Source: an uncultured Myxococcales bacterium (GTDB lineage: Bacteria; Myxococcota_A; UBA9042). Taken from it: DNA of 64,000 bases. The translations under genes were made by a program, and so were the position numbers. The notes below the pieces were generated by a model. It was not told where the DNA came from. It did not search any database and was given only the letters and a program-made list of their open reading frames with translations. Location of the stretch: the NCBI GenBank assembly GCA_903883645.1, contig CAISBR010000004.1, positions 13,461 to 77,460 on the forward strand, written 5' to 3'. This document shows positions 11,202 to 48,999 of this stretch, piece after piece. Numbering within the stretch: the first letter of the stretch is position 1; every line of letters starts with the position of its first letter.

Positions 11202-11231
11202 ACCGGCAGACGCCAACAGGCGAAATTGCGG

Positions 11232-12485
<1,254 letters not shown>

Positions 12486-13169: not shown

Positions 13170-13520
13170 CTAACCCTCGTCGCGCGCCATCGCCGCGATC
13201 AAGCGCTTGCGCTGGTCTGGAAACAGGTGCTTGAAGCGGATTGCCCAGGCCAATTCGCTCGCGGGCGACGGCCCCATCACTTCGCCAAGTGCGCGGACGG
13301 GTTCACCTTCGTCGACATCGAGGTCGAGCCACACATAGCGCCCCAGCACCGCCGACGGCGGCTCGGCCAGGCTTACACCTTGCAGATCAAAGTGCTGGGC
13401 GGTGGCCACACAATCGGGCTCGTCCTGGGCACGCCGGCGATGCAGCCCCACACGGTAGGCGTGCGGCGCGCGCTGCTCCGGGGCACGGCGAGAGGCGACG
13501 GAAGTGGTCTCGGTCTGCAT
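13170..13520 (-). CDS. PilZ-like domain protein
   Basis: RRAPEQRAP (RxxxxR), degenerate HFDLQG, AIRF strand; 116 aa. Confidence 0.55.
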   Translation of the reverse strand: MQTETTSVASRRAPEQRAPHAYRVGLHRRRAQDEPDCVATAQHFDLQGVSLAEPPSAVLGRYVWLDLDVDEGEPVRALGEVMGPSPASELAWAIRFKHLFPDQRKRLIAAMARDEG

Positions 13521-13605
13521 GGGGCCCTAGACTGCCAACTGCGGCAGACTGCGATAGTGGCCCAGCCTCGTGCGCCGTCAAAAAATGCGCACGCTCGACC
13601 GCCGG

Positions 13606-14700: not shown

Positions 14701-14784
14701 CAGGCGCTGGGTTCCATACGCCGCGTTAGGCGGCAGGCTCCACAGCAAAGCACGCCACTTCGGCCGCGCAAGGCACGGCTTCGG

Positions 14785-15051
14785 CTATTGCGGGTCGTCG
14801 CGCAATTCTTCGGTGTCTTGCACCTTGGCATCGCCGTACTCGGCAATCAGGGCCTCGGCGCGATCGGCGTCGTCCAGCGGCACCACCACCCCCGTGCCGT
14901 GGGCAAACGCCAGCGCCGGGTCCAGGCCGCCCAGGTCATCTTCGTCGATAAGCTGTGCGTCGATGCCGTTGCCGCGAAGCCACTGCAAAATCGGCTCGGC
15001 GTCCATCGGGTTGTCTGCGTAGAAGACCTTGCGTTCGTCGGAGAATACCAT
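14785..15051 (-). CDS. DUF2007-like small putative signal-transduction protein
   Basis: DAEPILQWLRGNGIDA...VVVPLDDADRAEALI pattern. Confidence 0.7.
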   Translation of the reverse strand: MVFSDERKVFYADNPMDAEPILQWLRGNGIDAQLIDEDDLGGLDPALAFAHGTGVVVPLDDADRAEALIAEYGDAKVQDTEELRDDPQ

Positions 15052-15110
15052 GATCGCCCTCCACTTTCGCTGCCTAGACTCAAGGTAGGTCGGCGCGGGC
15101 CAGCGGCAAG

Positions 15111-22955: not shown

Positions 22956-23059
22956 GTGCGGTGCATCGCAGCAGGCGATTCTTGTGTCCGTGCCGCGGTC
23001 TGGGTAGCATGGCGGTAGCGGCTGGCGGCACAGGCACGCGGCGCCAAGGCGCAGTCAAT

Positions 23060-31527: not shown

Positions 31528-33710
31528 TTCCACGCCTCGGGCAACTGCAAGCCAAACTGCTGCACCAAGAAGGTCAGCCGGTCGGTGGCCTCGTCGATCT
31601 GCTTGGTGGTGGGCTTGCCGGCCCCATGCCCAGCGCGCGTCTCGATCCGCACCCGAATCGGCGCCGGACCGCCCTGAGCCGCCTGCAACGCCGCTGTAAA
31701 CTTGAACGAATGCGCCGGCACCACCCGATCGTCGTGGTCGCCCGTGGTCACCAGCGTGGCGGGATAGGCCGTACCCTTGTGCAAGTTATGAAGAGGACTG
31801 TACTTGTATAGCCACTCGAAGGCCTTGGCATCGGCACTGCTGCCGTACTCGGGCACCCAGCCCCAGCCGATGGTGAACAGGTGGTAGCGCAGCATGTCCA
31901 TCACCCCCACCGCCGGCAGAGCAGCGCCAAATAATTCAGGCCGTTGCGCTAGACACGCGCCGACGAGCAGCCCGCCGTTGCTACCGCCCGCGATCGCCAA
32001 ATGCGCCGAGGTCGTCCACTTCTCGCGGGTGAGCAGCTCGGCCGAGGCAATGAAGTCGTCAAAAACATTCTGCTTCTTTCCTAGCTGCCCAGCTTGATGC
32101 CAAGCCTCGCCAAACTCGGCACCGCCGCGCAGCACCGCCACCGCCAGCACGCCGCCCGCCTCGATCCAAGCTTGCAGGTCGGGCTTGTAAAACGGCGTCA
32201 TCTCTACAGAAAACCCGCCATAGCCGTACAGGTAGGCCGGCGCCGAGCCATCGCGGGGCAGGTCGCTGCGGGCAGTGACAAAAATCGGCACCCGGGTACC
32301 ATCTTTGCTAGTCGCATAGCGCAGTTGCGTACTGTACTTTTCGGCGGGCAGACCGCGCTTGGCGTCGAAACGCACCTGCAGCTCGCCCTTGTCGAGGTTG
32401 GCGTGGTATACCCGCGCCGGCGCCAAGAAGTCTACGTATGCAAAGAACAAATTGGCATCACCCGCGTGGCCCGACAGCCCCACCACCGAGCCCAAACGCG
32501 GAAACGTCGGCGCGGGCAGCGGCTTGCCCTGATAGTCCACGAATTCGAGCTGATGCGAGGCATCGACCAGCTTGCCCAAGACGATACCCTTGCCCGCCAA
32601 CACCGCGAACGACAAGGTAGAATCCGCCTCGCCCTGCACTTGCCGCCACCCCGCAGGCAGCGGCCCCACCGGCTTGTCGCTGTCGAGATTTGCCGCCTTG
32701 TGCAGGTCGAGCGCCAGCAGCCGGCCCCGCGGCGCACCCCAATCACTGCGCAAGAACAGCTGGTTACTAGCCACACCCGCCACTTCGAACGCGCCGCCAA
32801 AGCCGCTCGCCAGCTGCCGATTGGGACCCAGACCTTTGGTCGTAATTTCGCGAACATCCAAGCCATTCTTCGACTCGGCGCCGCGCGAGGTGGTCAAAAG
32901 CCACCAGTGCCCGTCGTCGCTCACCTCGACGCCAAAGCCCCACTCGGCCTGCGCGGCGTTCTCGTGCACCACCGCGTCGGCCGACTGCGGCGTGCCCAAT
33001 TTGTGGAAGCACACCTTCTGGAACTTGTTGACACCTGTAAGCGTTTCGCCCGCTTTGGGCGCGTCGTAGCGGGAATACCAAAAGCCGCTGCCGTCGGGAT
33101 GCCAGGCGATCGAGCTAAACTTGACCCATTGCAGTACGTCGGGCCGATCGGCGCCGCTGTCGACCTCGCGCACGTGGATCTCGTTCCAGTCCGAGCCGCC
33201 GCTCGCCAGGGCATAGCCCAGCAACTTGCCGTCGTCACTGGGCGAAATCGTCTGCAAGAACAGGGTGCCGTCGCCCGCCGCCCGATTGGGATCGTACAGA
33301 ACCTTGCACGTGCGCTCGTCTTGCGGCGCCCAGCACAGCACGGCCTGATTCTGCAGCCCGTCGTTGTGCCGCCAAAATGCCCGCCCGCCCCGCAGCGTAG
33401 GCGCCGTTTCTTTCGGAAAATCCCAGATCTGCGCGAGATGCCGCGCCAACACCGGCCGCTGTGGCACCCGATCGAGCAGCGCCCGCGTGGCCAGGTTCTG
33501 CGCTTGCACCCACGCCTGCGTCTCGGCACTGTCTTGCTCGAGCCAGCGGTACGGGTCGGCGACTTTGTGGCCATGGTAGTCGTCAACCTGGTCGCTGGTG
33601 CGCGTCGGCGGCGGCTGCGGCAGCTCGGATTTCGCAGGCGTCGCAGGCTGTTGAGCAGGCGAGGAACAGGCGACGGCAAGGGCAAGCAACCAAAGCAGCG
33701 ATGGGCGCAT
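31524..33710 (-). CDS. Prolyl oligopeptidase (S9A) lipoprotein
   Basis: Lipobox AVAC; ADPYRWLE, YGYGGF, GGSNGG, DDRV, AGHG triad motifs. Confidence 0.95.
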   Translation of the reverse strand: MRPSLLWLLALAVACSSPAQQPATPAKSELPQPPPTRTSDQVDDYHGHKVADPYRWLEQDSAETQAWVQAQNLATRALLDRVPQRPVLARHLAQIWDFPKETAPTLRGGRAFWRHNDGLQNQAVLCWAPQDERTCKVLYDPNRAAGDGTLFLQTISPSDDGKLLGYALASGGSDWNEIHVREVDSGADRPDVLQWVKFSSIAWHPDGSGFWYSRYDAPKAGETLTGVNKFQKVCFHKLGTPQSADAVVHENAAQAEWGFGVEVSDDGHWWLLTTSRGAESKNGLDVREITTKGLGPNRQLASGFGGAFEVAGVASNQLFLRSDWGAPRGRLLALDLHKAANLDSDKPVGPLPAGWRQVQGEADSTLSFAVLAGKGIVLGKLVDASHQLEFVDYQGKPLPAPTFPRLGSVVGLSGHAGDANLFFAYVDFLAPARVYHANLDKGELQVRFDAKRGLPAEKYSTQLRYATSKDGTRVPIFVTARSDLPRDGSAPAYLYGYGGFSVEMTPFYKPDLQAWIEAGGVLAVAVLRGGAEFGEAWHQAGQLGKKQNVFDDFIASAELLTREKWTTSAHLAIAGGSNGGLLVGACLAQRPELFGAALPAVGVMDMLRYHLFTIGWGWVPEYGSSADAKAFEWLYKYSPLHNLHKGTAYPATLVTTGDHDDRVVPAHSFKFTAALQAAQGGPAPIRVRIETRAGHGAGKPTTKQIDEATDRLTFLVQQFGLQLPEAWK

Positions 33711-33883
33711 ACGATTCCTGCGGGTCCGACTGCGACCACACGGCGCGATGGTGGCCCGCAGGCCTGCCGATGTCTAGTCGCGACAAAGAGCTGCGTATTT
33801 TCAGGCAGTAGAACAAGGGTGCCACGTTCTGCCGTCATCTGCTACCGTGTCGGCCGGCGCGGTAGCTGCGCGCGTGAGCAAGC

Positions 33884-34663
33884 ATGATCGAACCAATTCT
33901 TGTGGGCGCCGGGCGGATTGGCCTGGCCTTGGCGCGGCGAGCCGAGACGAAAGGCACGCCCACACAGCTACTTGGCCGGCACGACCGTTGGGATGTGCTT
34001 GACCAGCCGGCCGGGCAGCCGATCGCCCTATGTGTGCGCAACGACGACTTGGCAGTGGTGCTGCCGCGCATCCCCCAGCATCGCCATTGCGATCTGTTGT
34101 TTCTGCAGAATGGGATGTTGCGCGATTGGCTGGCGAAGCAGGGGCTGGCCCAGGCGAGCCGCGGTCTGCTGTTTTTTGCTGTAGCCGACCGTACTTGTGA
34201 CCCGGCGCCCGGCGGTGTCAGCCCGCTATGGGGCCACCATGCCCAAGAGTTTGCCAACTGGCTGAACGCGCTCGACCTGCCGGCCGCGGCGGTAACGGCG
34301 CAGGAGTTCGCCGACATTGAACTCGAGAAGCTGCTTTGGAATTGCTGCCTTGGTGTGGTGTGCCAGGCGCAGCACTGTACGGCAACAGAGGCCGCAACGG
34401 TGTACGCCTCACAACTAGCTGACTTAGTAGCCGAACTGGCGCAAGTGGGCCGCCCGGCGCTGCGGGCGCAGGCAGACAATGAGGCATTAACCCAGCGAAT
34501 TATCAGCTATAGCCTGCAGCTTGGTGATTATCGCGCCGCCGTCAAAGAATGGCCTTGGCGCAATGGCTGGTTCGTGGCCGAGGCCAAGCGGCGCAACATG
34601 GCTTGCCCACTGCATGATCGGCTGCTGCACCAGGCGATGGGCGAGAGTGCTGGCGCGGTCTAG
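33884..34663 (+). CDS. Ketopantoate-reductase-like Rossmann protein
   Basis: VGAGRIG, CVRND, FLQNG, EKLLWN. Confidence 0.6.
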   Translation: MIEPILVGAGRIGLALARRAETKGTPTQLLGRHDRWDVLDQPAGQPIALCVRNDDLAVVLPRIPQHRHCDLLFLQNGMLRDWLAKQGLAQASRGLLFFAVADRTCDPAPGGVSPLWGHHAQEFANWLNALDLPAAAVTAQEFADIELEKLLWNCCLGVVCQAQHCTATEAATVYASQLADLVAELAQVGRPALRAQADNEALTQRIISYSLQLGDYRAAVKEWPWRNGWFVAEAKRRNMACPLHDRLLHQAMGESAGAV

Positions 34664-35025
34664 GGTTTGCAATAGCCCTTGCCGTTGCAGCCGGCGCCAC
34701 TTGCTCCGCCCGGGCAGTCGGCGGCAGTTTTGCACGGCAGCGTACAGCGTTTGATGCCATCGCCGTAGGCAAAACAGGTCATGGCCGACGGGCAAACGCC
34801 CGCTGCGGGGCACGCCTCGCCAAAGCCCGCTGGGCCCAGGTGATCCCCGGCGCCGGCATCGGCAGCCGTGCCTGTGGCCGCATTGGCCAGGGCCGTGGCG
34901 TCGGTAGCGGTCGCGGCGGGTTGGGCGGCAGTCGATGCAGACTCGGTCTTGGCGCACCCAGATAGTGCCCAGCTCGCCAACGCCCCCAGCAGCAGCCCTT
35001 GCAGTACCTTGTTTACCCGCCTCAT
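34660..35025 (-). CDS. Small lipoprotein with C-terminal six-Cys module
   Basis: Lipobox LSGC, Ala/Thr linker, module ending CPGGASGAGCNGKGYCKP; ATGA overlap with the upstream gene. Confidence 0.8.
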   Translation of the reverse strand: MRRVNKVLQGLLLGALASWALSGCAKTESASTAAQPAATATDATALANAATGTAADAGAGDHLGPAGFGEACPAAGVCPSAMTCFAYGDGIKRCTLPCKTAADCPGGASGAGCNGKGYCKP

Positions 35026-35795
35026 CGCGCCCCCTTGCCGACCCCGCCGCCCACGACGAGCAGGCAGCCGGCGTCTTGGATATCGCCGCCCTTGCTGGCG
35101 TTTCGCCCCGTTCCGCATTGCGCGCCGAGCCACAGCGGCCCCAGTGTGCGCCGTGCACCAAGGTGGATGTGGTCCGCTGTGCCCTCGCCACCGGCTAGGA
35201 CAGCGCTGCGCACGCCCCACGACTCGGCCGAAATGGTCCACACATCAGTTAGTTGCCAGGCCGCCGCAGCTTCGTAGCGAGTCCGGCGGTCGTCGCCCGT
35301 CAGTCCGTCGATCGCCAGCACGGCCGAAAGATGCACCCGCCCGAACCGCCCCGCCACACCCGCGCCCAGTTGTGCCGTCGACGGCCGCGTCGCCTGCAGG
35401 CGTACCCGGGCGCCCGCCGTCAAGAAGGGGTGCCAGTTCTCGCCGACCGGCAGCACCACCGTCGCCAGCGGCGCTAGGCCCGCCACGCGCACATCGCTGC
35501 TCGAGAGTTGGCGAAAAGCGCCCTCTAGGCTGACTTGCAGCGGCCCAACTAGCCCCGCGCGCAGGCTAAGCCGTTCGTTTACGCCCTGATACTGCCCCGT
35601 GCCGCTGCCCACCCCACCCTTGACGGGCGAGAGCGGCCGCACCACTTCGGCCCCCAGGCTGGATTGAACCTCGAGCGGTCGGAGGCTGATGGTGTCTTGC
35701 ACGCGCACATAGGCCGGAGCATCGGCATACGCCGTCGAGCCAGCGACCGCGCTGACTAGCAGGACTGCAAAGACGAAGGCACCGCGCGTCGCCAT
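35022..35795 (-). CDS. Putative outer-membrane beta-barrel protein
   Basis: Signal peptide (AYA) and about 10-12 amphipathic strands (YEAAAAWQL, WTISAESWG). Confidence 0.6.
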   Translation of the reverse strand: MATRGAFVFAVLLVSAVAGSTAYADAPAYVRVQDTISLRPLEVQSSLGAEVVRPLSPVKGGVGSGTGQYQGVNERLSLRAGLVGPLQVSLEGAFRQLSSSDVRVAGLAPLATVVLPVGENWHPFLTAGARVRLQATRPSTAQLGAGVAGRFGRVHLSAVLAIDGLTGDDRRTRYEAAAAWQLTDVWTISAESWGVRSAVLAGGEGTADHIHLGARRTLGPLWLGAQCGTGRNASKGGDIQDAGCLLVVGGGVGKGAR

Positions 35796-35802
35796 CGCCG
35801 TC

Positions 35803-37542
35803 TTACTGCTTGATGCAGTAGATGAGACCTACATAAGGCGGCAAGTGATTGGTGAAATTGGTCCACGTCCACGTGTTTTGGCCGCCCGAGGCGACGGTCT
35901 GCTGCGACTCGCCCTGCCATTCGAAGCCGACGTAGCTGTACGAACCCGGCGAGTGCCAAGTGCCCGGGCCACGCTGGGTGTAGCCGCCGATGCGGTAGGT
36001 GTGCGAGCCGCCCACGCTGCCGAGCGCCACTGTGCCACCCTGGGGCAAAGGACCGACGCCGAGGGCAAGGCGACCGCGCATGTCGGGGGTACCGTTTGCC
36101 CCATCCGCCGCCACCCAGCCCGCCGGGCAGGTATTCAGGTTGAAAGGCGCGACCATGCCCGACAAGAACGAGGCGCCGCCCACCGTCAGGCCGCCATCGA
36201 CGATGAGGTCGCCCTTAATCTCGATCTTCTTGTTCGACAGCGTTTGGATGTTCACGGACCAGCTGAACTTGCCGTCGAAACCACCGGAGCCGCCACCCGA
36301 TTTCAGGTCCTTGACCGTAATGGACCACTGCCCGGCGATATCTTTGCCGACCCAGTCCAAGTCCATATTGCCAGAAACCAACGCCAAGTCTTTGTTGAAG
36401 TTGGTGGTCAGGGCCGTGCCGGTCTTGTTGCCGTTGTAAAGGACATACGGTGTCGCCATCTGCGGGCCATAGAGCTCGATGCGCACACCCGACATGTCCG
36501 AGTTGGTCACCTGCACGTTGATCCAAATCTTTTGCGCTTGGCCGATGCTCGGAAAGTTAAGCGTGTCGGTGGTGCCTGGGCCAAGGCCGTCTGGAATCAC
36601 GATATTGCTCTTGCCGGCAGTGGAGTCTGTGAATTGATTCCAGATTAGACCGTTCGAGACCTCGTCGATCAAGTCTGGCGCGATGGCCGATGCGACGCAC
36701 GCGTACGAGCCGTCGCTGTTGATGCCGTTCATAACGAGGCCGGTGCCGCAAGTCTTGCCGAGCTGGGTCGGCGTGGGCGTGCCGCTCAGGTCGGCATAGC
36801 TGCCGCTGGCGGCGACCTTGGCCAGGCTCGACGCTTTGACGTAGCCCGCCAAGTCGGCACTTTTTGCGTATGCAGCGAGGTCGGTTAGCTTGGCGTAGCC
36901 ACCTAAGTCGGTGAGCTTGGCGAACGCGCCGAGGTCGCTCGACTTGGCATAGGCGGCGAGATCGGTGAGCTTGGCGAGGCCGCTCAGGTCGGGACCGCCG
37001 TTCAGGTCGGTGAATGCTCCCGTGGTGGCCACTTTGGCAAGGTCAGATACCTTAGCGTAACCACTCATAATTTTTGGATCAACTTGGGCCGCCGTAATGC
37101 AGCCCGTGCAATCCATGCTCTCGGCCACGGCGGCGCGCATGGCAAAGGCTGTAGCCAAAAGCGGTCGGCGCGGCAGTTCCGTATCGGTTCCCACTTGCAA
37201 ACCAACCCATAGCGCGGCACCGGTCAAGACCGAGCCAGTGAGCGGCGACTTGGCGCCCAGAACGGCGCTCCATGTGCCAGCTTTGACGCCGACCGGGAGC
37301 GGGCCTTCCATCCAGATGGGGTTACCACCAGACTCATCTTTGTAAATCGCAAAGGTAAGCTGGTAATTACCGTCGGGAGCAGCACCTCCGGTCGAAGTCA
37401 GCGTACCTTCAATGCCGATGGTAGGGGGGACCGCTGCCTGGGCCGAGGCACTACCGAACAGGAGGCAGATCATGGCGACCTGCCAGCTCGCGCGCGCTGC
37501 CCAGATGCGCGCCGCCGTGGTCCAATTTCCTTTGCTTTCCAT
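35803..37542 (-). CDS. Secreted tail-fibre-like protein with P-domain-like sandwich and C-terminal tail-collar domain
   Basis: Signal peptide AQA; DLxxYAKxx repeats; LAKVAASGSYADLSG; GQWSITVKD; CPAGW..DG.NGTPDMRGR...LPPYVGLIYCIK. Confidence 0.75.
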   Translation of the reverse strand: MESKGNWTTAARIWAARASWQVAMICLLFGSASAQAAVPPTIGIEGTLTSTGGAAPDGNYQLTFAIYKDESGGNPIWMEGPLPVGVKAGTWSAVLGAKSPLTGSVLTGAALWVGLQVGTDTELPRRPLLATAFAMRAAVAESMDCTGCITAAQVDPKIMSGYAKVSDLAKVATTGAFTDLNGGPDLSGLAKLTDLAAYAKSSDLGAFAKLTDLGGYAKLTDLAAYAKSADLAGYVKASSLAKVAASGSYADLSGTPTPTQLGKTCGTGLVMNGINSDGSYACVASAIAPDLIDEVSNGLIWNQFTDSTAGKSNIVIPDGLGPGTTDTLNFPSIGQAQKIWINVQVTNSDMSGVRIELYGPQMATPYVLYNGNKTGTALTTNFNKDLALVSGNMDLDWVGKDIAGQWSITVKDLKSGGGSGGFDGKFSWSVNIQTLSNKKIEIKGDLIVDGGLTVGGASFLSGMVAPFNLNTCPAGWVAADGANGTPDMRGRLALGVGPLPQGGTVALGSVGGSHTYRIGGYTQRGPGTWHSPGSYSYVGFEWQGESQQTVASGGQNTWTWTNFTNHLPPYVGLIYCIKQ

Positions 37543-37673
37543 GATTATGCTCCCGCTGGATTCGCCTTGACCGGCCTCAGGCGTATGGCTTTGAATACAA
37601 GACGGCCCGTACGCGCCAATCCCGCAGATTAGCGCCGCTTAGCAGACCTGGCAACTGCCAATGCGGACGGCGG

Positions 37674-39836
37674 TTACGGCTTACAGAACCCCTTGCCGTT
37701 GCAGCCGGCGCCGCTTGCACCGCCTGGGCAGTCCGCGGCCGAGGTGCACGGAATGGTACATAACTTTCCAATAGTAAACGCAAAACACACCATCGGCGCC
37801 GGACATACGCCGTTGGCAGGGCAAGGGTCACCAAAGCTTGCTGCCGACCCGCCGCAGTCACCCGGGCAGCTGCTGGCCGTCTCGCCCGAGTCGCATGTGC
37901 CGTTGCCGCACGCGGCGCTGACACACTGACCGGCGCTGCATGTCTGGCCCGCGGCGGCGCAGTCGGTGCCACTGGTCGACCAGCCCGAGCCGTCGGCTAG
38001 GCAGACCTGCACGGTATTGCTGCTGCAGTTGGCGGCCCCTGGTGCACAAACCTGTGCTTGGCAGACGCCCGCTTGGCAGAATTGTCCGGTGCCGCAGGTT
38101 TGTAGCGCGGTAGGGCTAACCCCCAACGCATCGCACTTCATTGCAACATTACCTTGACAATAAAGGGGATTTTGCGGGTCACACAGCAAGCTGACGCACG
38201 CGCCGGCCGAGCAGATCTGGCCGCTTGAGGTGCAGTCGCTGCCCCCGGATACAAAGCCCGAGCCGTCGGCGTTGCAGACGGTCGCGACCGTGCCATTACA
38301 GGTCAACTTTGCAGGATTGCATAGGATTGCCTGGCATCCCGGCGCGCCACCTTGACCGCTACCGCAGTAGGTGCTGGGTGGGCAGATCTGCCAGCTGAGC
38401 ACCGCTGTGCCATCGCTGTTGCAGGTGCTGAGCTTGGCGCCGCTGCACGCCGTGGCCCCGGCCGCGCAAACTACATCTTTACACTGCCCTTCTGAGCACT
38501 TCTGCGCGCCGCACGCCTGGCCGCCACCCTGCCAACCCGTGCCCGAGGCGTTGCATGTCGCAACCACATTCTCTTGGCAAGTTGTTGAATTTGCACTGCA
38601 GACTAGAGGCAGACACGAACCGCCGGCACAGGCCTGCCCGCCGGCACAGGGGGCAACGACCGAACCTGACAGGCCATTCGCCCCGCACAGCACCACGTCG
38701 CCACCTACGCAATACGTCGTGTTTGGCGTGCAAGTGGTTGGAATGCAAGACCCCGCAACACAAACTTGGCCGCCGCACGCCTGGCCTGGACCACTTGGCC
38801 CCGAGCCCTGTGGGTTGCACACCTCGACCGCGTTGCCCACGCACGTGGCCTGATTGGGCAGACACACCTGCTCTAAGCACGCGCCGCCGCTGCAGTAGTA
38901 GCCGGCGCCACAAGTCTGGGTCGCCCAAGCGGACTGGCCATCGCTGGCGCAAACCATCACCTGATTGCCTTGGCAGCTCTGGCTTGCGGGCGCGCACAAA
39001 GTGGCCGCGCAGTGGTCGCCGAGGCACACTTCGCCGGGAGCACAGGCCTTGGTGCTGACCACCTTTAACCCATCGCTGGCACACACCTGCAACTGCGCGC
39101 CCACGCAACTGATTCCGGGCAAGCATGTCCAAGCCGCGCACACCGGGATGGCGCCATCGAGAGTGCACGTGGACTGCGCCGGGCATGGATCGGGCGCGGA
39201 CAAACTGCTGCCGTCGCTGTTGCAGGTCAGGCGCGCGTTGGCCTGGCAGATGCCTTGGCCGGGGCTGCAGATGTCGGTGGTGCACACGCCGGTGCCAGCG
39301 GGGCCAAAGGGCGCACAGAATTGACCGGGCGCACAGTCAAGCGATGCCAAGCATTTTGTGCACTTTCCCTTGCCTACGTCGCAATGGGGGGTGTCGCTCG
39401 GGCACTGGCCATCGCTGGCGCACGGCAAAAATGGCCGACAAAGGCCTGCGTCGCAGCTATGGTTGCTAGCGCAATCAGCGATCGTGGAGCAGGCAGTGAG
39501 CGGTAGGCAATGGTGGCCGATGCACTCGTGCTCGCCGCTGCATTGGGCGGCCGACATGCAGGCCACGCAACGACTGGTAATCGGGCTACAAATCGGCTTA
39601 TCAGCCGGGCATTCACCGTCGCTGGCGCAGGGGATGCCGGTCGCTGTCGCGTCGCCCGCAGTGTCGCTACCTGAGACTTCGGCGCCCGCCTCACCCACTA
39701 GGCTATCGCTGACGGCGCTGTCGCCGGCCACCGAACTAGCAGGCGCGGCGGCTGGGTTGCTGCTACACGCCAACCCCGCCACCACAGTCAACATCGCCAG
39801 CGGCACAAGTTCAATAATTCTCTGCAATAGGCCCAT
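37674..39836 (-). CDS. Cys-rich repeat lipoprotein
   Basis: Lipobox GLAC; about ten C.P....C.GN....C..DG repeats; C-terminal module shared with 34660..35025. Confidence 0.8.
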   Translation of the reverse strand: MGLLQRIIELVPLAMLTVVAGLACSSNPAAAPASSVAGDSAVSDSLVGEAGAEVSGSDTAGDATATGIPCASDGECPADKPICSPITSRCVACMSAAQCSGEHECIGHHCLPLTACSTIADCASNHSCDAGLCRPFLPCASDGQCPSDTPHCDVGKGKCTKCLASLDCAPGQFCAPFGPAGTGVCTTDICSPGQGICQANARLTCNSDGSSLSAPDPCPAQSTCTLDGAIPVCAAWTCLPGISCVGAQLQVCASDGLKVVSTKACAPGEVCLGDHCAATLCAPASQSCQGNQVMVCASDGQSAWATQTCGAGYYCSGGACLEQVCLPNQATCVGNAVEVCNPQGSGPSGPGQACGGQVCVAGSCIPTTCTPNTTYCVGGDVVLCGANGLSGSVVAPCAGGQACAGGSCLPLVCSANSTTCQENVVATCNASGTGWQGGGQACGAQKCSEGQCKDVVCAAGATACSGAKLSTCNSDGTAVLSWQICPPSTYCGSGQGGAPGCQAILCNPAKLTCNGTVATVCNADGSGFVSGGSDCTSSGQICSAGACVSLLCDPQNPLYCQGNVAMKCDALGVSPTALQTCGTGQFCQAGVCQAQVCAPGAANCSSNTVQVCLADGSGWSTSGTDCAAAGQTCSAGQCVSAACGNGTCDSGETASSCPGDCGGSAASFGDPCPANGVCPAPMVCFAFTIGKLCTIPCTSAADCPGGASGAGCNGKGFCKP

Positions 39837-39884
39837 GCCGCGTCGCCTGCGACGGTCGCCCCCGGCAACGCCCATCGCGCTACC

Positions 39885-42800
39885 TTACTTGCAGGTGGCG
39901 GCGCACGCGACGTCGATCTGGTAGTCCTCGACCGCGTCTTGGTAGCCGTCGACCACGATGAAGTACTTCTTGCCCTTTACGCCGGCGAAGGTCTTGGTGG
40001 CCGTGGTGCCCATCATCAGCGCGTGGCTGGTGCATGAGCCGGGCCCGCAGGTCTTGCTGCCATCTAAGATGAACAAGTCGACGTAGTTACCGCTCGTGCT
40101 CGACGTCTTCTTCAGCGTAACCGTCACATCGCCGGTGCAGGTGGCATCGTACGTGTAGGTGTACTCGGGGCCCGTGTAGTCGGCCTCGGCGCCGTCGGCG
40201 CACTGCCAGCTGTCGATCACATCGGTGCTGCCGGTTGTGCCGTTGTTGTACTGGTCGCTGCCACCGCAGGCCAGGCTGTAGTCAGAAACGCATTGCGGGG
40301 CGGCGACCTTGCAGGCGGGATCGGCCGCGCAATCTGTGTCGGCGCAGTCGGTTTGGCCGTCTTTGTCGTCGTCGATCTTGTCGCTGCAGTTGGTCTCGGT
40401 GGTGGGCGCGGCGCAGCTGCAGTCGACCTTCAGCGTATAGTTGCCGTTGTAGTTGTTGTAGCCGTCGGCGACCACGTAGTAGGTCTGGCCCTTCTTGGCG
40501 GTCCAGGTAGTTTTGCTGGTGGTGCTGCTCATCAGGCCGTGGACCAAGCAGGCATTGCTGGTGCAGGTCTTGGCGGCATCCAGCACGAACAGGTCGATGT
40601 AGCCCGAAGTCGTAGACGTTTTGGTCAGCGTGGCGGTTACCGGCCCATCGCACGCGGCGACATAGGTGTACGTGTACTCCGAGCCAGTCTCGCCGGTCAT
40701 GCTGCCGTCGGCGCACTGCCAGTCGCTCACCACCTTGGTCGAGCCGGTGCCGTTGTTGCTGTAGCTATCCGAATCGCCGCAGCTCATCGGGTAGTCGGCC
40801 TTGCACTGGGTGGCGGCGAGGCAGGTGGCGTCTTTGGCGCAGTCGCTGTCGGCGCAGTCGGTCTTGCCGTCTTTGTCGTTGTCGACCTTGTCGCCGCAGT
40901 TGGTCTCGGTGGCCGGGGTGCTGCAGGCGACGTCTTTGGCGCAGTCCGTGTCGGCGCAGTCGGTCTTGCCGTCCTTGTCGTTGTCGACCTTGTCGGCGCA
41001 AAGCACTTCCGTGCCGGCTACGATGCAGGCGGCGTCTTTGGCGCAATCGCTGTCGGCGCAGTCGGTTAGGCCGTCTTTGTCGTCGTCGACCTTGTTGGTG
41101 CAGCTGGTCTCGGTGGTGGCGCCGCACTTGCAGGTGGTCTTGATGCTGTAGTTGGCCGAGTACGCGTTGTAGCCGTCGACCACGATGCTCAACTTCTGGC
41201 CGTTCTTGACGGTGACGGTCTGGGTGGCGGTGGTGCCGCTCATCAGCGCGTGGGCGACGCAAGCGTTGCTGCCGCAGGCCTGGCCGCCATCGAGCAAGAA
41301 CAGGTCTAAGTAACCGCTGGTGGTCGAGGTCTTGGTCACCGCGACCGTCAGCTGGCCGTCGCACGAGGCGGTGTAGTCGTAGGTGTATTCCGCGCCGGTC
41401 TCGCTGCCCATCGTGCCGTCTTGGCACACGTAGGTGCTGACGACCTTGGTCGAGCCCGTGCCGTTATTGCTCCACGAATCCGAGCTATTGCACGCGAGCG
41501 GATAGTCCGGGACGCAGGCGCACGCACCCTTGCCCGAGCAGTCGGGGTCGGCGCAATCGACCAAGCCGTCGGCGTCGTTGTCGACCTTGTCGGTGCAGTT
41601 GGTCTCGCCGGCAGGCGCGATGCAGGCCGCGTCTTTGGCGCAGTCGGCGTCGGCGCAGTCGGTCTTGCCGTCTTTGTCGTTGTCGAGCTTGTCGGCGCAC
41701 AGCGTCTCGGTCGTGCCGCCGGTGCAGACGGGGTCCTTGGCGCAGTCGCTGTCTAGGCAGTCGGTCTTGCCGTCTACGTCGTTGTCGATCTTGTCGCCGC
41801 ACGCGGTCTCGACCGTGGGGGCGCAGGCCAAGTTGGTGGCGCAGTCGCTGTCGAGGCAGTCGAGCTTGCCGTCTTTGTCGTTGTCGATCTTGTCGGTGCA
41901 CGAGGTCTCAACCGTGGGCGCGCAGGCCAGGTCCGCAGCGCAGTCGCCATCGAGGCAGTCGACCAACTTGTCGCCATCGTTGTCGATCTTGTCGGTGCAG
42001 TTGGTCTCTTTGCCGCCTTCGCAGCCGCACGTAATCTTGAGCGTGTAGTCGGCCGCAAAGCCCTGGTAACCATCGACAACTACAAAGTACTTGGCGTCTT
42101 TCTTGGCAGTAAAGGTCTGCGTGGCCTGCGTCGACGACATCAGCGCGTGGGCGATGCACGACGACGAGGCGCAACCCTTGGCCGCGTCTAGGATAAACAA
42201 GTCGAGGTAACCCGCCTTGGTGCTCTGCTTAACCAGCGTGACGACCACTGGGCCATCGCAGCCCGCGGTGTAGCTGTAGGTGAACTCGGCGCCGGTCTCG
42301 CCGTTGACGTTGCCGTCGGTGCACGCGTAGGCGCTGAGCGCGCTGGTCGAGCCCTTGGCGTCGCTGGTGCCCTTCTCGTTGCCGCCGCAGGTGGTGCTGG
42401 CCGCGTCGACGCACTTGTTGGCTGCGCAGGCGACGTCGGCCTTGCAATCGCTGTCGCCACAGTCGGTTAGGCCGTCTTTGTCGTCGTCGATCTTGTTGCC
42501 GCAGTTGGTCTCTTTGCCGGCGCACGCCGCGTCTTTGGCGCAGTCGCTGTCGGCGCAGTCCGTAGCGCCATCTTGATCGTCGTCGAGCTTGTCGGCGCAG
42601 TTGGTCTCGGTGGTGGGCGCGGTGCACTGCTTCTTGCAGAGCGTGCCGACTTCCTCGACACAGGTAACGTCCCAAGCGGTCTTGCAACAGAACGGGTCGG
42701 CCTTGCACACGGTCGCGGCGCAGGCATCGCAGCCGATGGTCAGCGGCGTGCCACTCTCGAGGCAAACATCGCACTTACTCGCGCACTTGCTGTCTTTGGC

Positions 42801-44045
42801 GCAGTCGCTGTCGGCGCAGTCGGTAAAGCCGTCTTTGTCGTCGTCGAGCTTGTTGCCGCAGTCGGCCTCGGCCACAAGCGCGCACGCGGGGTCCTTGGCG
42901 CAGTCAGTGTCTTGGCAATCGAACTTGCCGTCGACATCGTTGTCTTTGCCGTCGGTGCAATTGGTCTCGGTCGTCACGGTCGAGGCGCACGCAACATCGA
43001 CGCTGCAGTCGTTGTCTTTGCAGTCCGTAAAGCCGTCGCCATCGTCGTCGATGCTGTTGCTGCAGTTCTTCTCGGCGGTCTTGCAGGCATTGTCGGCGGC
43101 GCAGTCGGCATCGGCGCAGTCGGTCTGGCCGTCTTTGTCGTCGTCGACGCCGTCGGTGCAGTTCGCCTCTTTGGTGGGGTTGATCAAGCAAGCCGCGTCT
43201 TTGCCGCAGTCGTTGTCGGCGCAGTCGGTCTGGCCGTCGCCGTCGTCGTCGACCTTGTTGGCGCAGTCGATCTCGCTGCTGGGCTTCTTGCAGGCGTTGT
43301 CCGCGGCGCAATCGCTGTCGGCGCAGTCGGTAGCGCCGTCTTTGTCGTTGTCTTGCTGGTCTTGGCACGCCGTCTCGGGCCCTACTGACTTGCAGGCCGT
43401 ATCCGACGCACAATCATTGTCAGCACAGTCGGTTAGACCGTCTTTGTCGTCGTCTTGGGCGTTGCCGCAGTTGGTCTCGGGGCCGGTTTGGCAGGTGCCG
43501 TTGGCCGTGCCCTTGCAAGCGCCCGCCGTGCAGGTGTCGTCGCTGGTGCACTTGTCGCCATCGTCGCAGGGCGCCTGGTTGTTGGTCGCCACGCAGCCGG
43601 TCTTGCTATCGCACTTGTTGTCGGTGCAGGGGTTGTTGTCTTGGCAACTGGTCGCGGTGCCGCCCTGGCACTTGTCGGATTTGCAGGTGCGGCCGGCAAA
43701 GCACTTGTTGCCGTCGTCGCAGGGGTCGCCCTCGGCCGAGGGGCCGGCCTTGCATACACCTGCGGCGCACCACGCTTTTTCGCACGCGGCGAGGTTGGTC
43801 ACCTTGCCCACGCAGTCGTCGTCCGTCGTGCACCCGGCCGCCGTGTCGGGCTTGGTCGTATCGAGCTTGGCGGTATCGTTCACCTGGGTGGAGTCGCCCA
43901 GATTGACGCCCATGTCATCGCCCGCGACGTCTTTGCCGGTCGTCTGCTGCGTCTGCGAGGAGCCGGAGTCACCACAGCCGACGGCGACGAGGCCGAGCAG
44001 CGCAGTGAGAGCCAAGGACCAACGAATCGTACTGAAATTCATCAT
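39885..44045 (-). CDS. Giant lipoprotein with 18 Cys/Asp-rich repeats and four PPC-like beta-domains
   Basis: Lipobox AVGC; ETxCxDKxDxDKDGxTDCADxDC repeats; four GxEyTYxY..YlDLF.LD..VvDGY domains. Confidence 0.85.
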   Translation of the reverse strand: MMNFSTIRWSLALTALLGLVAVGCGDSGSSQTQQTTGKDVAGDDMGVNLGDSTQVNDTAKLDTTKPDTAAGCTTDDDCVGKVTNLAACEKAWCAAGVCKAGPSAEGDPCDDGNKCFAGRTCKSDKCQGGTATSCQDNNPCTDNKCDSKTGCVATNNQAPCDDGDKCTSDDTCTAGACKGTANGTCQTGPETNCGNAQDDDKDGLTDCADNDCASDTACKSVGPETACQDQQDNDKDGATDCADSDCAADNACKKPSSEIDCANKVDDDGDGQTDCADNDCGKDAACLINPTKEANCTDGVDDDKDGQTDCADADCAADNACKTAEKNCSNSIDDDGDGFTDCKDNDCSVDVACASTVTTETNCTDGKDNDVDGKFDCQDTDCAKDPACALVAEADCGNKLDDDKDGFTDCADSDCAKDSKCASKCDVCLESGTPLTIGCDACAATVCKADPFCCKTAWDVTCVEEVGTLCKKQCTAPTTETNCADKLDDDQDGATDCADSDCAKDAACAGKETNCGNKIDDDKDGLTDCGDSDCKADVACAANKCVDAASTTCGGNEKGTSDAKGSTSALSAYACTDGNVNGETGAEFTYSYTAGCDGPVVVTLVKQSTKAGYLDLFILDAAKGCASSSCIAHALMSSTQATQTFTAKKDAKYFVVVDGYQGFAADYTLKITCGCEGGKETNCTDKIDNDGDKLVDCLDGDCAADLACAPTVETSCTDKIDNDKDGKLDCLDSDCATNLACAPTVETACGDKIDNDVDGKTDCLDSDCAKDPVCTGGTTETLCADKLDNDKDGKTDCADADCAKDAACIAPAGETNCTDKVDNDADGLVDCADPDCSGKGACACVPDYPLACNSSDSWSNNGTGSTKVVSTYVCQDGTMGSETGAEYTYDYTASCDGQLTVAVTKTSTTSGYLDLFLLDGGQACGSNACVAHALMSGTTATQTVTVKNGQKLSIVVDGYNAYSANYSIKTTCKCGATTETSCTNKVDDDKDGLTDCADSDCAKDAACIVAGTEVLCADKVDNDKDGKTDCADTDCAKDVACSTPATETNCGDKVDNDKDGKTDCADSDCAKDATCLAATQCKADYPMSCGDSDSYSNNGTGSTKVVSDWQCADGSMTGETGSEYTYTYVAACDGPVTATLTKTSTTSGYIDLFVLDAAKTCTSNACLVHGLMSSTTSKTTWTAKKGQTYYVVADGYNNYNGNYTLKVDCSCAAPTTETNCSDKIDDDKDGQTDCADTDCAADPACKVAAPQCVSDYSLACGGSDQYNNGTTGSTDVIDSWQCADGAEADYTGPEYTYTYDATCTGDVTVTLKKTSSTSGNYVDLFILDGSKTCGPGSCTSHALMMGTTATKTFAGVKGKKYFIVVDGYQDAVEDYQIDVACAATCK

Positions 44046-44091
44046 GATTCTCCAAGACAACCGGGCATTCGGGCGCCAAATAGGGGTCAAG

Positions 44092-44120
44092 AGGGTACGG
44101 ATCAGGGCAGTCTGCGTCAA
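44092..44120 (-). promoter_or_regulatory. Putative sigma70-type promoter for the giant-lipoprotein cluster
   Basis: TTGACG-N17-TACCCT, 47 nt upstream of the start. Confidence 0.45.
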
Positions 44121-44211
44121 GCAAAACCAGGTGCCCAGCTTGTGACATTTGTGCAAACGCTGGCCGCGCGCCGCTTCCCCTTGCCGCCACAATTCCGCTA
44201 ACCTAGGGGCC

Positions 44212-45309
44212 ATGAACTGGCGCGTGTTTGGGCTGATCCTACTTATTACAATGGGTTGTCGACGCAGCCCGGCGCCGATGGCTACACCGCACGCGGTGCC
44301 AGAGCCTCAGGCCGTCTTGGCCAACAAAGCCCTAGATTTGTTCAGGGATGCCACCATCACGGGTAATCCGCCGGCAGGAGCGCCGGACTTGCTGCAAGCG
44401 ATCGCGGCGATCAAAACCGAGGCGACCAAGCCGGCCCTGGGCAAGCTGGCCGCGCTGGCGACCCCGGCATCGGTGGCACGGCTGGCTGACCGCACCCGCA
44501 CCGAGGCGGGGCTGGCGGGGCGACTGCCGCTCACCCCGGGCAGCGTCTTGGCGCGCTTTGCCAGTAAAATCGAGGCTGTAGAGTACCTTGGCGCGCGGGC
44601 GGCGGTGCGCACCGTGGGCAAGCCCCAGCCGCAGACCTCGTGGTTCTACTACCGCAACGGCGCCTGGCTGCTCGACTTGGCCGACACGCGGGCGCTGCAG
44701 CCGGCGTGGACAGGCCCCATAAACTATGAGAATCACTCGGTAACTCTGGCGCAGGCTTTGACTCCGAGCGGCGATCCGCAGCAGCCCCTGGTCGTGACGC
44801 TGCATAGCGACAAGGGCGACGTCCACTGCCTGCTGCACGAGCAGCAAATGCCCGAAATCGTGGCACATTTTGTAGGTCTGGCCACCGGCGCGCGGGCATC
44901 GCGCAAGGCCGAGGCGCGCACCATGGAAAACGTGTGGCAGCACAAGCGCTTCTACGATGGCACCGTCATTTATCGCGCCCTGCCCGGCCGGCGTATCGAG
45001 GCGGGCGACCCCTTCAGTCTCGGCACGGGTCACGCCGGTTTTCGTCTGGCCGATCGCTTCGATCTCAGCCTGCGCCATAGCATTGCTGGGGTGCTGGGTC
45101 TGCTGCCGCTCGGGCCGCACAGCACCAGCTCGATCTTCTACATCACGCTGCAGGCCGAGCCCGATTTCGACGATCACGGCGTGATTTTTGGCCTGTGCCG
45201 CGATCTCGACGTGGTCGACCGCTGGAGTCGCCAGCCCAAAGGCAGTATTGTACTGAATCATTTCGACTTTTCGCGCGGATGGCCCAGCGAGGCGCCCGCC
45301 CCGCATTGA
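44212..45309 (+). CDS. Lipoprotein with degenerate cyclophilin-type PPIase domain
   Basis: Lipobox TMGC; FVGLATG, FYDGTVIYR, AGDP, SIFYIT, HGVIFG. Confidence 0.75.
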   Translation: MNWRVFGLILLITMGCRRSPAPMATPHAVPEPQAVLANKALDLFRDATITGNPPAGAPDLLQAIAAIKTEATKPALGKLAALATPASVARLADRTRTEAGLAGRLPLTPGSVLARFASKIEAVEYLGARAAVRTVGKPQPQTSWFYYRNGAWLLDLADTRALQPAWTGPINYENHSVTLAQALTPSGDPQQPLVVTLHSDKGDVHCLLHEQQMPEIVAHFVGLATGARASRKAEARTMENVWQHKRFYDGTVIYRALPGRRIEAGDPFSLGTGHAGFRLADRFDLSLRHSIAGVLGLLPLGPHSTSSIFYITLQAEPDFDDHGVIFGLCRDLDVVDRWSRQPKGSIVLNHFDFSRGWPSEAPAPH

Positions 45310-45340
45310 CGGCAGCGGCTGCAATCGCAACACTGGCGCC

Positions 45341-46231
45341 ATGGCCTCGCATCCCATCGTCCACGGGCTCTCGATCGACGTCGAAGACTGGTTCCATATC
45401 CTAGACTGCGAGGGCAGCCCCGACGCCAGCCGCTGGGCCGAGTTGCCATCGCGAGTAGAACGCAACACCGGCATCTTATTGGATCTTTTTGACCGCCACC
45501 GCGTCAAGGCGACCTTTTTTTGCCTGGGCTGGGTGGCCGAGCACTTCCCGACCGTGCCGCAAGAAATTGTGCGCCGCGGCCACGAGTTGGGTTCGCACAG
45601 CCATTTGCACGGTCTGGTGGGGCCCCTTGGCGCCGAGAGTTTTGCCCGCGACCTCGACACCTCGCTGCAAGCGCTGCAACACGCGACGGGCACCACGATT
45701 AAGTGCTTTCGCGCGCCCGGCTTTTCGCTGACGCGCACCGAAGTGGGCTGGGCGCTGCCGCTGCTGGCCTCGCGCGGTATCGACCTCGACTCGTCGCTTT
45801 TCTTGACCGACCGGGCCCACGGCGGCCTGCCGCTGGGTCGCCAAGATCCGTTTACCATCCAGCTACACGACGGGCACAAACTGCTCGAAGTTCCTGTGAT
45901 TCCGCGTCGTTTTGGCAACCGCGATCTCGCGTTTTCGGGCGGTGGCTACCTGCGCCTGCTGCCCCTGCCCCTGCTGCGCGCCAGTTTTGCCGAAGTCGAG
46001 CGCCAGGGTCATGGCGCGGTGTGCTACCTGCATCCCCGCGAAATTGATATCGATCAGCCGCGAATGCCGCTGCCGCCCCAGCGCGCTTTCAAGTATTACG
46101 TCGGCCTGGGTAGCGTGATGGCCAAGCTCGAGGCGCTGCTGCAGCAGTTTCATTTCGGCACGTTGCGGCAAATGGCCGAGCGCAACCCACGCGACCGCTC
46201 GATTTCGCTCGACAATCTGCTGCGCGGCTAG
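45341..46231 (+). CDS. Polysaccharide deacetylase (DUF3473/XrtA-system type)
   Basis: SIDVEDWFH, ATFF, HELGSHSHLH, FRAPGFS, GGGYLRL, YLHPREID. Confidence 0.9.
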   Translation: MASHPIVHGLSIDVEDWFHILDCEGSPDASRWAELPSRVERNTGILLDLFDRHRVKATFFCLGWVAEHFPTVPQEIVRRGHELGSHSHLHGLVGPLGAESFARDLDTSLQALQHATGTTIKCFRAPGFSLTRTEVGWALPLLASRGIDLDSSLFLTDRAHGGLPLGRQDPFTIQLHDGHKLLEVPVIPRRFGNRDLAFSGGGYLRLLPLPLLRASFAEVERQGHGAVCYLHPREIDIDQPRMPLPPQRAFKYYVGLGSVMAKLEALLQQFHFGTLRQMAERNPRDRSISLDNLLRG

Positions 46232-46321
46232 CCTTGGCGGGCCCGTCTGCGGTTGCGCCAAGGTCGCGACGTTCCTAGCATGCTGGAGCGGCCCGCGCAG
46301 CGACCGTCAGGAGGGCTTTTG

Positions 46322-47497
46322 ATGTACCCAACTTTGCCTCGCTGGTGGCTTGTGTGCGGTCTACCTTTGGTGCTGATCGCCACCGCACTGAACACACAAC
46401 TTGCTGTAGCATCACCATTTTCTGGCGCGAACCAGTTTGTGGGCAAGTCGGTGGTGCCCGATAGCAACGACCAACACTTCTTTGCGGGCGCGCATTTTCA
46501 AGTCGCACCGGTCAAGGCGGTGATTCAGTCGGTGGTAAAGAAGAAGGTGAATGACTACGCGGCACAAAACCCCGGTGCCGCGCAGATGGTCCAGTACATG
46601 CAGTATGTGGATGCCAAGCAAGTCAAGCAGTTTGCCGACAGTGGCCAGGTCGAGCAATACAAGGCCGAGCTGAAGAAGCAGCTGGCGGCGCAAGGGCAGA
46701 CGCTGACCGCCGACCAGACCGCGCAGATCAACGCGATCGACTCGAGCAAGCTGAAGATGCTGGCCACCGTGGTGCAGATGTACCAAGAGCCTGAACCGAC
46801 TACCACATTTTCGCTCGAGCCCTACGCCGGCTTTATCGCCGGGCCGCTGATGGTGACGGCGCAGGTGCCGATCGCCGGTTTTCATACGAGCGCGCAAGAT
46901 ACGATGGTGCTTGGCAATCCTGGTCTCGACGTGCGGCTTGGCCAGCACTTTGGTCTGCAGGGCGCGGCCTTTGCCTATGCCGTGGGTGCGTCGGGCTGGG
47001 CGCCGCTGGGCAGCGAAGACTCGAGTACCATTGTGCTTTCGAACGTGCTCGCCTCGCCGCGCTACATGCACGACTACGCGTCGTGGACGGGCTACGGTGT
47101 GTTGGCGGCCGAGCTGGCGGTCTTTGACCTGCAAGTGCGCGGCGAATACGTCGAGATGCGGCCGTCGTCGAGCCTGAACAGCGACTCGAATCCGCTGAAT
47201 GACTTACACTTAATGCGCTACGTGAACGCGGGTGCCGCGCTGTCGACCGACATGGGCTTTGTGGGTCTGTCGCTGGCGGTCGATGGCCTGTTCAACGTGA
47301 AGAACGCGCCGGCGTACAATAATACCTACTTTGTGACGGCGGGCATGCGCTTGTTCTTGAAAAAAGCCCAGATCGGTGCTGCCATCCAGTTGCCGCTGGC
47401 CAAACCGGGCGACGGCGATACGGTGCCGGTCGGCGGCATCAACCTGGGCTCGCCGGCGAGCGTCAACATGCTGCTCAACGCCCAAATTAGCTTGTAA
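46322..47497 (+). CDS. Putative outer-membrane beta-barrel with helical insertion
   Basis: SD AGGAGG, signal peptide, Q/K-rich helical block, then amphipathic strands ending LNAQISL. Confidence 0.6.
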   Translation: MYPTLPRWWLVCGLPLVLIATALNTQLAVASPFSGANQFVGKSVVPDSNDQHFFAGAHFQVAPVKAVIQSVVKKKVNDYAAQNPGAAQMVQYMQYVDAKQVKQFADSGQVEQYKAELKKQLAAQGQTLTADQTAQINAIDSSKLKMLATVVQMYQEPEPTTTFSLEPYAGFIAGPLMVTAQVPIAGFHTSAQDTMVLGNPGLDVRLGQHFGLQGAAFAYAVGASGWAPLGSEDSSTIVLSNVLASPRYMHDYASWTGYGVLAAELAVFDLQVRGEYVEMRPSSSLNSDSNPLNDLHLMRYVNAGAALSTDMGFVGLSLAVDGLFNVKNAPAYNNTYFVTAGMRLFLKKAQIGAAIQLPLAKPGDGDTVPVGGINLGSPASVNMLLNAQISL

Positions 47498-47509
47498 CAT
47501 ACGGATCTT

Positions 47510-48829: not shown

Positions 48830-48999
48830 TCTGCAAATTATTATTCGGTGCACTTGCGCGACTGCTGCGACCTCGCCAGAATCGCTGCGACTGTAGCCCG
48901 ATCAACCGCAAGCGCTAGGCACCAAGACCTCGTATTTACTAGCGAAAAGAAGCTGCCACCGCGATGGCGCACCGCAGCACCGACCGAGGAGGACGCCCG

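Follow-up and report, generated by a model that had tools for sequence, protein, structure and literature searches.

Whether a run of adjacent genes for exported proteins constitutes one surface apparatus, or a set of separate elements that have come to lie side by side, is the question raised by a locus of an uncultured Myxococcales bacterium (Myxococcota_A; UBA9042) represented by the assembly GCA_903883645.1. The window, i.e., the whole stretch of 64,000 nucleotides that was analysed (contig CAISBR010000004.1, positions 13,461 to 77,460), carries at 34660-44045 five minus-strand open reading frames (ORFs) in tandem, which encode, in the direction of transcription, a giant lipoprotein, a Cys-rich lipoprotein, a fibre-like protein, a beta-barrel and a small lipoprotein. 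A preliminary description had read them as a single five-gene adhesion or prey-recognition device, in which the barrel serves as the outer-membrane partner of a secreted tail-fibre-like protein. Its observations at the level of the genes were confirmed, including the ORFs and their coordinates, the export signals of all five products (judged by eye), the 7-nt gap between the fibre and barrel genes and the ATGA overlap of the next pair; the secreted fibre and the barrel also withstood analysis, and capsid, sheath and integrase genes were indeed absent from the neighbours scanned, but the idea of one five-gene device was not supported. The reading favoured here, to which a probability of about 0.6 may be assigned, is that the locus is composite: a fibre from a large family would lie within a rare cassette formed by the barrel and two lipoproteins with a common Cys-knot domain, next to an unrelated giant lipoprotein, and the barrel would be a small channel with a charged lumen.

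Distribution of the fibre and barrel genes

The co-occurrence of these genes was surveyed in 37 genomes that represent a sample of the order, many of them incomplete. When the single protein was used as the query, a strong match to the barrel was obtained in 5 of the 37 genomes (this genome, all three genomes of genus g5 and one of the six genomes of g4), and in none of the ten other genomes of the same genus (g1). A profile of 22 barrel sequences matched 15 of 401 Myxococcota genomes, with strong matches confined to the same five, while a search for related loci with alignment A1 recovered just the four relatives already found and nothing in metagenome contigs. In contrast, every one of the 37 genomes contains the N-terminal domain of the fibre (N-domain), at 2 to 100 matches per genome; the ten same-genus genomes without a strong barrel match have 9-40 of them apiece.

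The same imbalance is seen within the genome itself, where the barrel is single-copy and neighbours one of roughly 37-40 fibre genes. Among the four barrel-bearing relatives, one (G009) has a fibre gene within 7 kb of the barrel, in a region where the three g5 loci are unlike one another; in G010, this region contains integrase- and transposase-like ORFs, which were recognised by eye from the N-terminal ends of their products. Among full-length proteins, the one closest to the fibre is found in G014, where its gene closes a tandem array of four fibre genes and where neither a barrel nor a Cys-knot gene is present in 17 kb. Co-occurrence of the five genes was not found in any other genome of the survey; the genes thus largely fail to occur together elsewhere, which the preliminary description had named as grounds for its own refutation. 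Neither a dedicated five-gene apparatus nor a barrel that partners the fibre is supported by this pattern. Since the N-domain is family-wide, the barrel is single-copy and relatives of the fibre lack a barrel, the fibre is probably not coupled to the barrel.

The variable block and the resident giant lipoprotein

The limits of the variable part of the locus emerge from comparison with the closest syntenic relative, G027, in which 140 bp of unrelated sequence replaces a 5.26-kb block (window 34643-39899) comprising the genes of the small lipoprotein, the barrel, the fibre and the Cys-rich lipoprotein. In blastn alignments, positions 1-1360 of the G027 locus (L040) correspond to window 33268-34642 and positions 1501-9403 to window 39900-47761, and the replacing sequence occupies L040 1361-1500, between the side with the S9-peptidase and ApbA-like genes and the side of the giant. 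In G025 (L091, L092), the same slot holds a different large gene, which encodes a thrombospondin-type-3-repeat (TSP3) protein that appears OmpA-like, judged from its C-terminal sequence and a homologue in contig C10. Thus, three close relatives show three states of this slot, which is bounded by the ApbA-like gene and the giant (140 bp, the four-gene block, or the TSP3-repeat/OmpA-like gene). It is therefore a site, flanked by two housekeeping-type genes, at which close relatives exchange genes for surface proteins. The arrangement in the window is real rather than an assembly artefact, because two independent public contigs, X5 (15.9 kb) and X7 (15.6 kb), run through both ends of the block; they cover window 34400-40100 unbroken, with 12 differences. 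A further contig, X6, gives figures identical to those of X5 and possibly represents the same data.

Because G027 has the giant and lacks the other four genes, the variable block consists of these four without the giant. The giant lipoprotein (39885-44045, minus strand; 1386 aa, start MMNFST) is kept in place in relatives that lack the other four genes and is therefore a resident gene of the lineage, outside the block; its orthologue in G027 is 83% identical and directly adjoins the ApbA-like gene. The protein belongs to the acidic double-disulfide repeat family NF033662 of NCBIfam, which it matches with 444 bits (cut-off 41) in 18 stretches. Beside these 18 repeats, it contains four beta-rich modules of ~150 aa for which no Pfam family match was obtained. 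The modules follow the pattern ...YTY.Y...CDG.V.V...K.S...GY.DLF.LD...C....C..H.LM...Y.VVVDGY...Y.. and, by eye, resemble pre-peptidase-C-terminal-type beta-sandwiches. A strong AT skew extends across the giant gene.

A predicted 12-stranded outer-membrane barrel

The barrel gene (35022-35795, minus strand) encodes a 257-aa protein that is predicted to be a 12-stranded outer-membrane barrel of a rare family distantly related to DUF6662. Its AlphaFold2 model, computed from a 22-member alignment, reached a pLDDT of 88 and a pTM of 0.81 and comprises 12 strands. Together with the signal peptide, the closed antiparallel arrangement of alternating strands in the model is that of an outer-membrane barrel, and the fold proposed for 35022-35795 in the preliminary description, on which that description had been made to depend, is accordingly the one predicted here. 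Alternation of hydrophobic and polar residues was observed in 11 of the 12 strands, the exception being strand 101-114 (0.54 vs 0.47). The residues E50, R130, R132, E163, R173 and E191 are invariant or nearly so and lie on the polar, presumably lumen-facing side, as does E91, which is present in 17 of the 22 members; R75 and R137 are equally conserved, with R75 on the other face by strand parity and R137 in a turn.

A Foldseek search of the Protein Data Bank (PDB) with the model returned 144 chains at E ≤ 0.001, and the matches listed were all engineered porins or channels of the outer membrane. With normalisation to the target, the TM score was highest for the 12-stranded NanC (0.70) and VhGalP (0.69). 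More generally, the barrel shares strand number, size and fold with 12-stranded KdgM/NanC-type channels (PDB 2wjq, 8xua), COG4313 (4rl8) and FapF (5o68), with target-normalised TM scores of 0.56-0.70 and polar or charged residues at lumen-facing positions. Its sequence identity to these channels is 8-13%; moreover, it has no acidic-sugar genes nearby and lacks the usual C-terminal aromatic residue. From the fold and the neighbouring genes, the protein is most likely a small solute channel with an Arg/Glu-lined, charged lumen, served by lipoprotein accessories.

The family to which the barrel belongs is small. Among 1.84 billion proteins, a profile of the protein and four relatives detected no more than 27 representative clusters (E ≤ 0.001), and a word-indexed protein search returned the query itself alone. 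The barrel matched no family in Pfam, NCBIfam or PHROGs, and 4 of the 22 family members gave weak matches to OMP_b-brl. The uncharacterised family DUF6662 (PF20367) is matched by more distant relatives (five of the eight scanned at E ≤ 0.01, of which two exceed the gathering score), but neither the window barrel nor its 21 aligned relatives match it at E ≤ 1, which places them outside that family. The two groups also differ in their gene neighbourhood, as the distant relatives that match DUF6662 have no Cys-knot lipoprotein within 1.5 kb, unlike the barrel of the window.

Cys-knot lipoproteins linked to the barrel

The two lipoproteins of the block have a private domain in common. The Cys-rich lipoprotein (37674-39875, minus strand, with an alternative start at 39836; 733 aa from the first ATG) consists of tandem Cys-rich repeats and a C-terminal 8-Cys domain (37677-37844, minus strand) that ends in ...CNGKGFCKP, and the small lipoprotein (34660-35025, minus strand; 121 aa) carries a domain of the same type at its C-terminus (34663-34830, minus strand), following the lipobox and an Ala/Thr-rich linker. 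The alignment of this knot domain (A4) contains eight invariant Cys residues. A hidden Markov model of the domain matches the Cys-rich lipoprotein in full at residues 673-733 and, in addition, recognises degenerate internal copies; the full-length domain was detected in just these two genes of the genome. Neither lipoprotein matched a family in Pfam, NCBIfam or PHROGs. A profile search of the PDB with the knot alignment gave a chance-level hit (E 2.7), and an Atlas search with the small lipoprotein returned generic myxobacterial Cys-rich lipoprotein clusters, with all scores below 0.9.

The linkage between the barrel and 8-Cys-knot lipoproteins is maintained in all five barrel-bearing genomes. 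In G009, G010 and G011, a small Cys-knot lipoprotein immediately follows the barrel, and a second one lies upstream with one gene between; in G003, a Cys-knot lipoprotein is found 1.2 kb downstream of the barrel. The intervening gene in g5, at the position taken by the fibre in the window, encodes an SBP_bac_11 lipoprotein distantly similar to the tungstate-binding protein TupA (E 2.9e-11). As the barrel keeps its knot-lipoprotein neighbours across genomes, the conserved unit appears to be the barrel with the knot lipoproteins, and the triad formed by the barrel and two such lipoproteins would represent an outer-membrane module in its own right. This triad, which has no known function and whose knot linkage is constant in the close subfamily of the barrel, is the less expected item of the locus. 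When the barrel (aa 25-257, alignment A2) and the small lipoprotein in its mature form (aa 26-121, A4) were modelled as a complex, the score was 0.11 against a mark of 0.32, in a run without controls that carries no weight for or against binding.

The surroundings of the cassette vary among the relatives. In g5, a sigma-54 activator lies upstream and multihaem cytochromes lie downstream; in L018 (G011:C4:191000-210000), the cassette at 6929-15755 is situated between a PAS/sigma-54 activator and a block of multihaem cytochrome c and cytochrome b genes. The families recognised in the cytochrome block are Cytochrome_cB and Ni_hydr_CYTB, and the arrangement resembles a CbcL-type cassette. In G003, a helix-turn-helix (HTH) regulator with a PBP_like domain is divergent from the barrel.

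A fibre from a large mosaic family

The fibre-like protein (35803-37542, minus strand; 579 aa) has a signal peptide and the conserved N-domain, after which come a stalk built of tail-fibre-type repeats, a P-domain and a tip of collar-like type. The beta-rich N-domain spans aa 37-135 (37138-37434, minus strand), and the monomer model is confident over aa 41-130, with a pLDDT of 88-97 and five strands. It is followed by the stalk (aa 136-262; 36757-37137, minus strand), in which repeats of the DL-x-x-YAK type can be read from the sequence and which matches phrog_30808 over aa 134-255 (E 2e-12); monomer confidence is low here, as expected for an intertwined region. The next segment combines a Cys-clasp and a P-domain-like beta-sandwich (aa 263-454; 36181-36756, minus strand). 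The sandwich is also modelled with confidence (aa 300-440), and its top Foldseek matches are the P-domains of furin, Kex2 and an Aeromonas protease, with a Pfam match to P_proprotein at E 0.0065 that is below the cut-off.

The variable tip (aa 455-579; 35806-36180, minus strand) is phage tail-collar-like, and its pLDDT is below 50. It matched the PDB entries 9qgo ("Tail fiber protein", E 0.0023) and 6ov6 (E 0.0075) as well as phrog_8469 (tail fibre, 1.8e-5) and phrog_1800 (tail collar fibre, 7.1e-4); with respect to the phage tail collar (PF07484), these weak matches cover aa 456-516, and no Pfam hit at E ≤ 0.01 was obtained. The similarity to phage collar-type tail fibres (9qgo; 6ov6, the "C24 protein"; PHROG 8469 and 1800) is local, centred on the motif ...P-x-GW-x-x-x-DG-x-x-GTPD-[LM]-RG-R..., and weak (E 0.002-0.008 against the PDB). 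Unlike the phage proteins, the fibre of the window is encoded on the chromosome, carries a signal peptide for Sec export and has no phage neighbours. The description of a secreted tail-fibre-like protein, as given in the preliminary account, is supported.

The genome encodes about 37-40 such fibres (77 tblastn matches and 40 ORFs; 37 N-domain matches), in which aa 20-460 are conserved and the tips differ. Among 35 paralogs scanned with Pfam, tips of at least four nameable types were found, including fibrinogen/COLFI-like domains in 15, DUF4215 in three, and TLDc and an ALK/LTK Gly-rich domain in one each; 14 of the 35 have no Pfam family whatsoever, and P_proprotein is present at E ≤ 0.001 in 15. 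The collar-type tip occurs in 11 of the 37 genomes of the order, namely all six of g4, all three of g5 (6-9 copies each), the single genome of g8, and this genome. A structure search of the Atlas with the N-domain led to clusters with Collar, Peptidase_S74 or fibrinogen tips from several phyla, and the link to proteins with S74 and Collar tips appears under the label PF30789; both results are leads only. In the word-indexed search, the N-domain returned 23 mostly unnamed proteins, none of them labelled Bdellovibrio, and the tip returned one relative.

Head-to-tail arrays of three or four fibre genes are frequent, for example in L105 (G014:C49:9000-26000) at 1277-8488 and, in this genome, in contig C80 at 4810-10563 and 117422-123598. 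Neighbours within an array have the N-domain and stalk in common but not the tip, a pattern that suggests duplication with later exchange of the tip.

A close parallel is provided by the mosaic adhesive trimer (MAT) fibres of Bdellovibrio bacteriovorus, of which 21 are reported in HD100 (Caulton et al. 2024, PMC10769870). In both systems, a signal peptide and a conserved beta-rich N-domain (100-130 aa) are followed by an extended stalk of repeats and by C-terminal tips that can be exchanged, and both form large paralogous repertoires with a likeness to phage tail fibres, 21 proteins in the one case and about 37-40 in the other. The fibres of the present family are shorter (about 560-1060 aa, compared with about 630-1960 aa for MATs) and have a furin-type P-domain before the tip, which the passages of PMC10769870 consulted do not mention for MATs; moreover, no Peptidase_S74 tip was found among the 35 paralogs scanned, and the tips of this family are collar-like or fibrinogen/COLFI-like. 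Judged from its architecture, the fibre of the window is an ordinary member of a large MAT-like family with mosaic tips, and by analogy with MATs it may trimerise, be displayed on the surface and bind a ligand. A Myxococcales member is already included in Supplementary Table 3 of PMC10769870, and the present repertoire adds to the evidence that uncultured freshwater Myxococcota carry very large sets of MAT-like proteins with swappable tips, which bears on how such bacteria recognise other cells.

Competing explanations of the locus

According to the composite reading, a resident giant lipoprotein with acidic double-disulfide repeats would stand beside a strain-variable 5.26-kb block, whose core would be the rare 12-stranded barrel and the two lipoproteins with their private 8-Cys knot. 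The barrel would most likely act as a solute channel and the knot lipoproteins as its accessories; in the relatives, the triad is accompanied by tungstate/molybdate-type binding domains. One fibre of the repertoire would have come to lie inside the block, at the position of the TupA-like protein in g5; exported by the Sec pathway, it would presumably be held on the cell surface by its N-terminal domain, and the presumed target of its collar-like tip is a glycan of another cell or surface. Several observations weigh against this reading. The barrel ends in GKGAR and thus lacks the aromatic C-terminal residue of the beta-signal (F or W is the last residue in 6 of the 22 aligned members of the family), the argument for a channel consists of the fold and the neighbours, the match of the g5 lipoprotein to TupA is far below the family cut-off (43 vs 400 bits), and no molybdenum or tungsten gene is present in the window. 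The likeness to the Bdellovibrio MATs, the N-domain included, is likewise one of architecture. In addition, the spacing of the fibre, barrel and small-lipoprotein genes is as close as in an operon with translational coupling, and the block differs from G027 by all four of its genes at once; because of this packing and joint presence or absence, a functional link may exist in this strain. Finally, the collar-type tip and the barrel are similarly patchy (g4, g5 and, within g1, this genome alone), a distribution compatible with their joint acquisition.

The packing and the joint presence or absence would be accommodated if the four genes formed a self-contained display unit, in which the barrel and knot lipoproteins export or anchor the fibre, or the TupA-like lipoprotein in g5. 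Such a unit would explain the 7-nt gap and the ATGA overlap, the presence or absence of the four genes as one block, and the order of Cys-knot lipoprotein, variable exported protein, barrel and small Cys-knot lipoprotein that is common to the g5 loci; it would also fill a gap noted in the Discussion of PMC10769870, where the surface element that binds the MAT N-domain is described as unknown. On the other hand, the N-domain is family-wide, and about 36 other copies in this genome, those of ten same-genus genomes (9-40 matches each, with no strong barrel match) and the nearest fibre relative in G014 are all without such a barrel. A 12-stranded barrel also appears narrow for the export of a folded trimer, and the G003 barrel has no exported protein in the slot. 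The display unit is thus improbable. Still somewhat less credence is due to a portable cassette in which the barrel and the two knot lipoproteins would act as an outer-membrane docking or export station for whichever protein occupies the second position; if this is true, the cassette would supply a first candidate for the element that retains a MAT-type fibre at the cell surface.

The origin and the ligand of the fibre invite two further alternatives. A remnant of a prophage or tailocin, with the cluster as a decayed phage region and the fibre as its collar-domain tail-fibre gene, would fit the PHROG tail-fibre and tail-collar matches of the tip, its similarity to the PDB "Tail fiber protein" and the phrog_30808 match of the stalk. 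This candidate was rejected and is very improbable: the protein has a Sec signal peptide, its N-domain recurs at 37 chromosomal places and throughout the 37 genomes surveyed, its relatives stand in arrays of fibre genes only, the GC content is like that of the surroundings, and no capsid, sheath, baseplate or integrase family was detected among the neighbouring genes scanned. It is also conceivable, albeit rather unlikely, that the fibres, instead of recognising prey, fasten the cell to particles or algae, take part in kin recognition or help to build a matrix, with the barrel cassette unrelated to them. Many tips are fibrinogen/COLFI-like or of unknown fold, copy number ranges from 2 to 100 per genome within one order, the deletion of MAT genes barely affects Bdellovibrio predation as summarised in a review, and no sign that the organism is predatory was seen in this analysis. 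Nothing was counted against such a role, which differs from the composite reading in the ligand only, a point beyond what sequence analysis can settle.

Gene order, export signals and neighbouring features

The composite locus favoured above is compact throughout. The giant and Cys-rich genes are separated by 9 nt, or by 48 nt with the alternative start, and 131 nt lie between the Cys-rich gene and the fibre gene. The stop codon of the small-lipoprotein gene overlaps in CTAG with that of a convergent ApbA/PanE-like gene, which flanks the locus on one side, and a divergent cyclophilin gene lies upstream. The 7-nt gap and the ATGA overlap suggest that the fibre, barrel and small-lipoprotein genes are co-transcribed. 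A promoter scan found no sigma-70-like site, and terminator-like hairpins were at chance level (11 found vs 8.8 expected). The small lipoprotein has a canonical lipobox (LSG|C), and looser lipobox-like motifs are present in the giant (VAVG|C) and the Cys-rich lipoprotein (AGLA|C), whereas A-x-A cleavage sites are present in the fibre (AQA|AVP) and the barrel (AYA|DAP), at alignment positions where their homologues have comparable ones.

The host assembly comprises 6.0 Mb in 244 contigs and is 95% complete, and the public sequencing runs that carry the stretch are lake-water metagenomes, with no RNA run listed for the block. Elsewhere in the window, a 605-aa protein (29716-31533) has an NMT1_3 solute-binding-like domain and weakly resembles the ligand-binding domain of neurotransmitter-gated ion channels (E 4.9e-5, a match under the cut-off). 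Two more very large genes are located at 22823-26692 and 48964-53097; one of them encodes 1289 aa with Dictyostelium-type Cys repeats and NHL/teneurin-like repeats, and the other encodes 1377 aa with an FHA domain.

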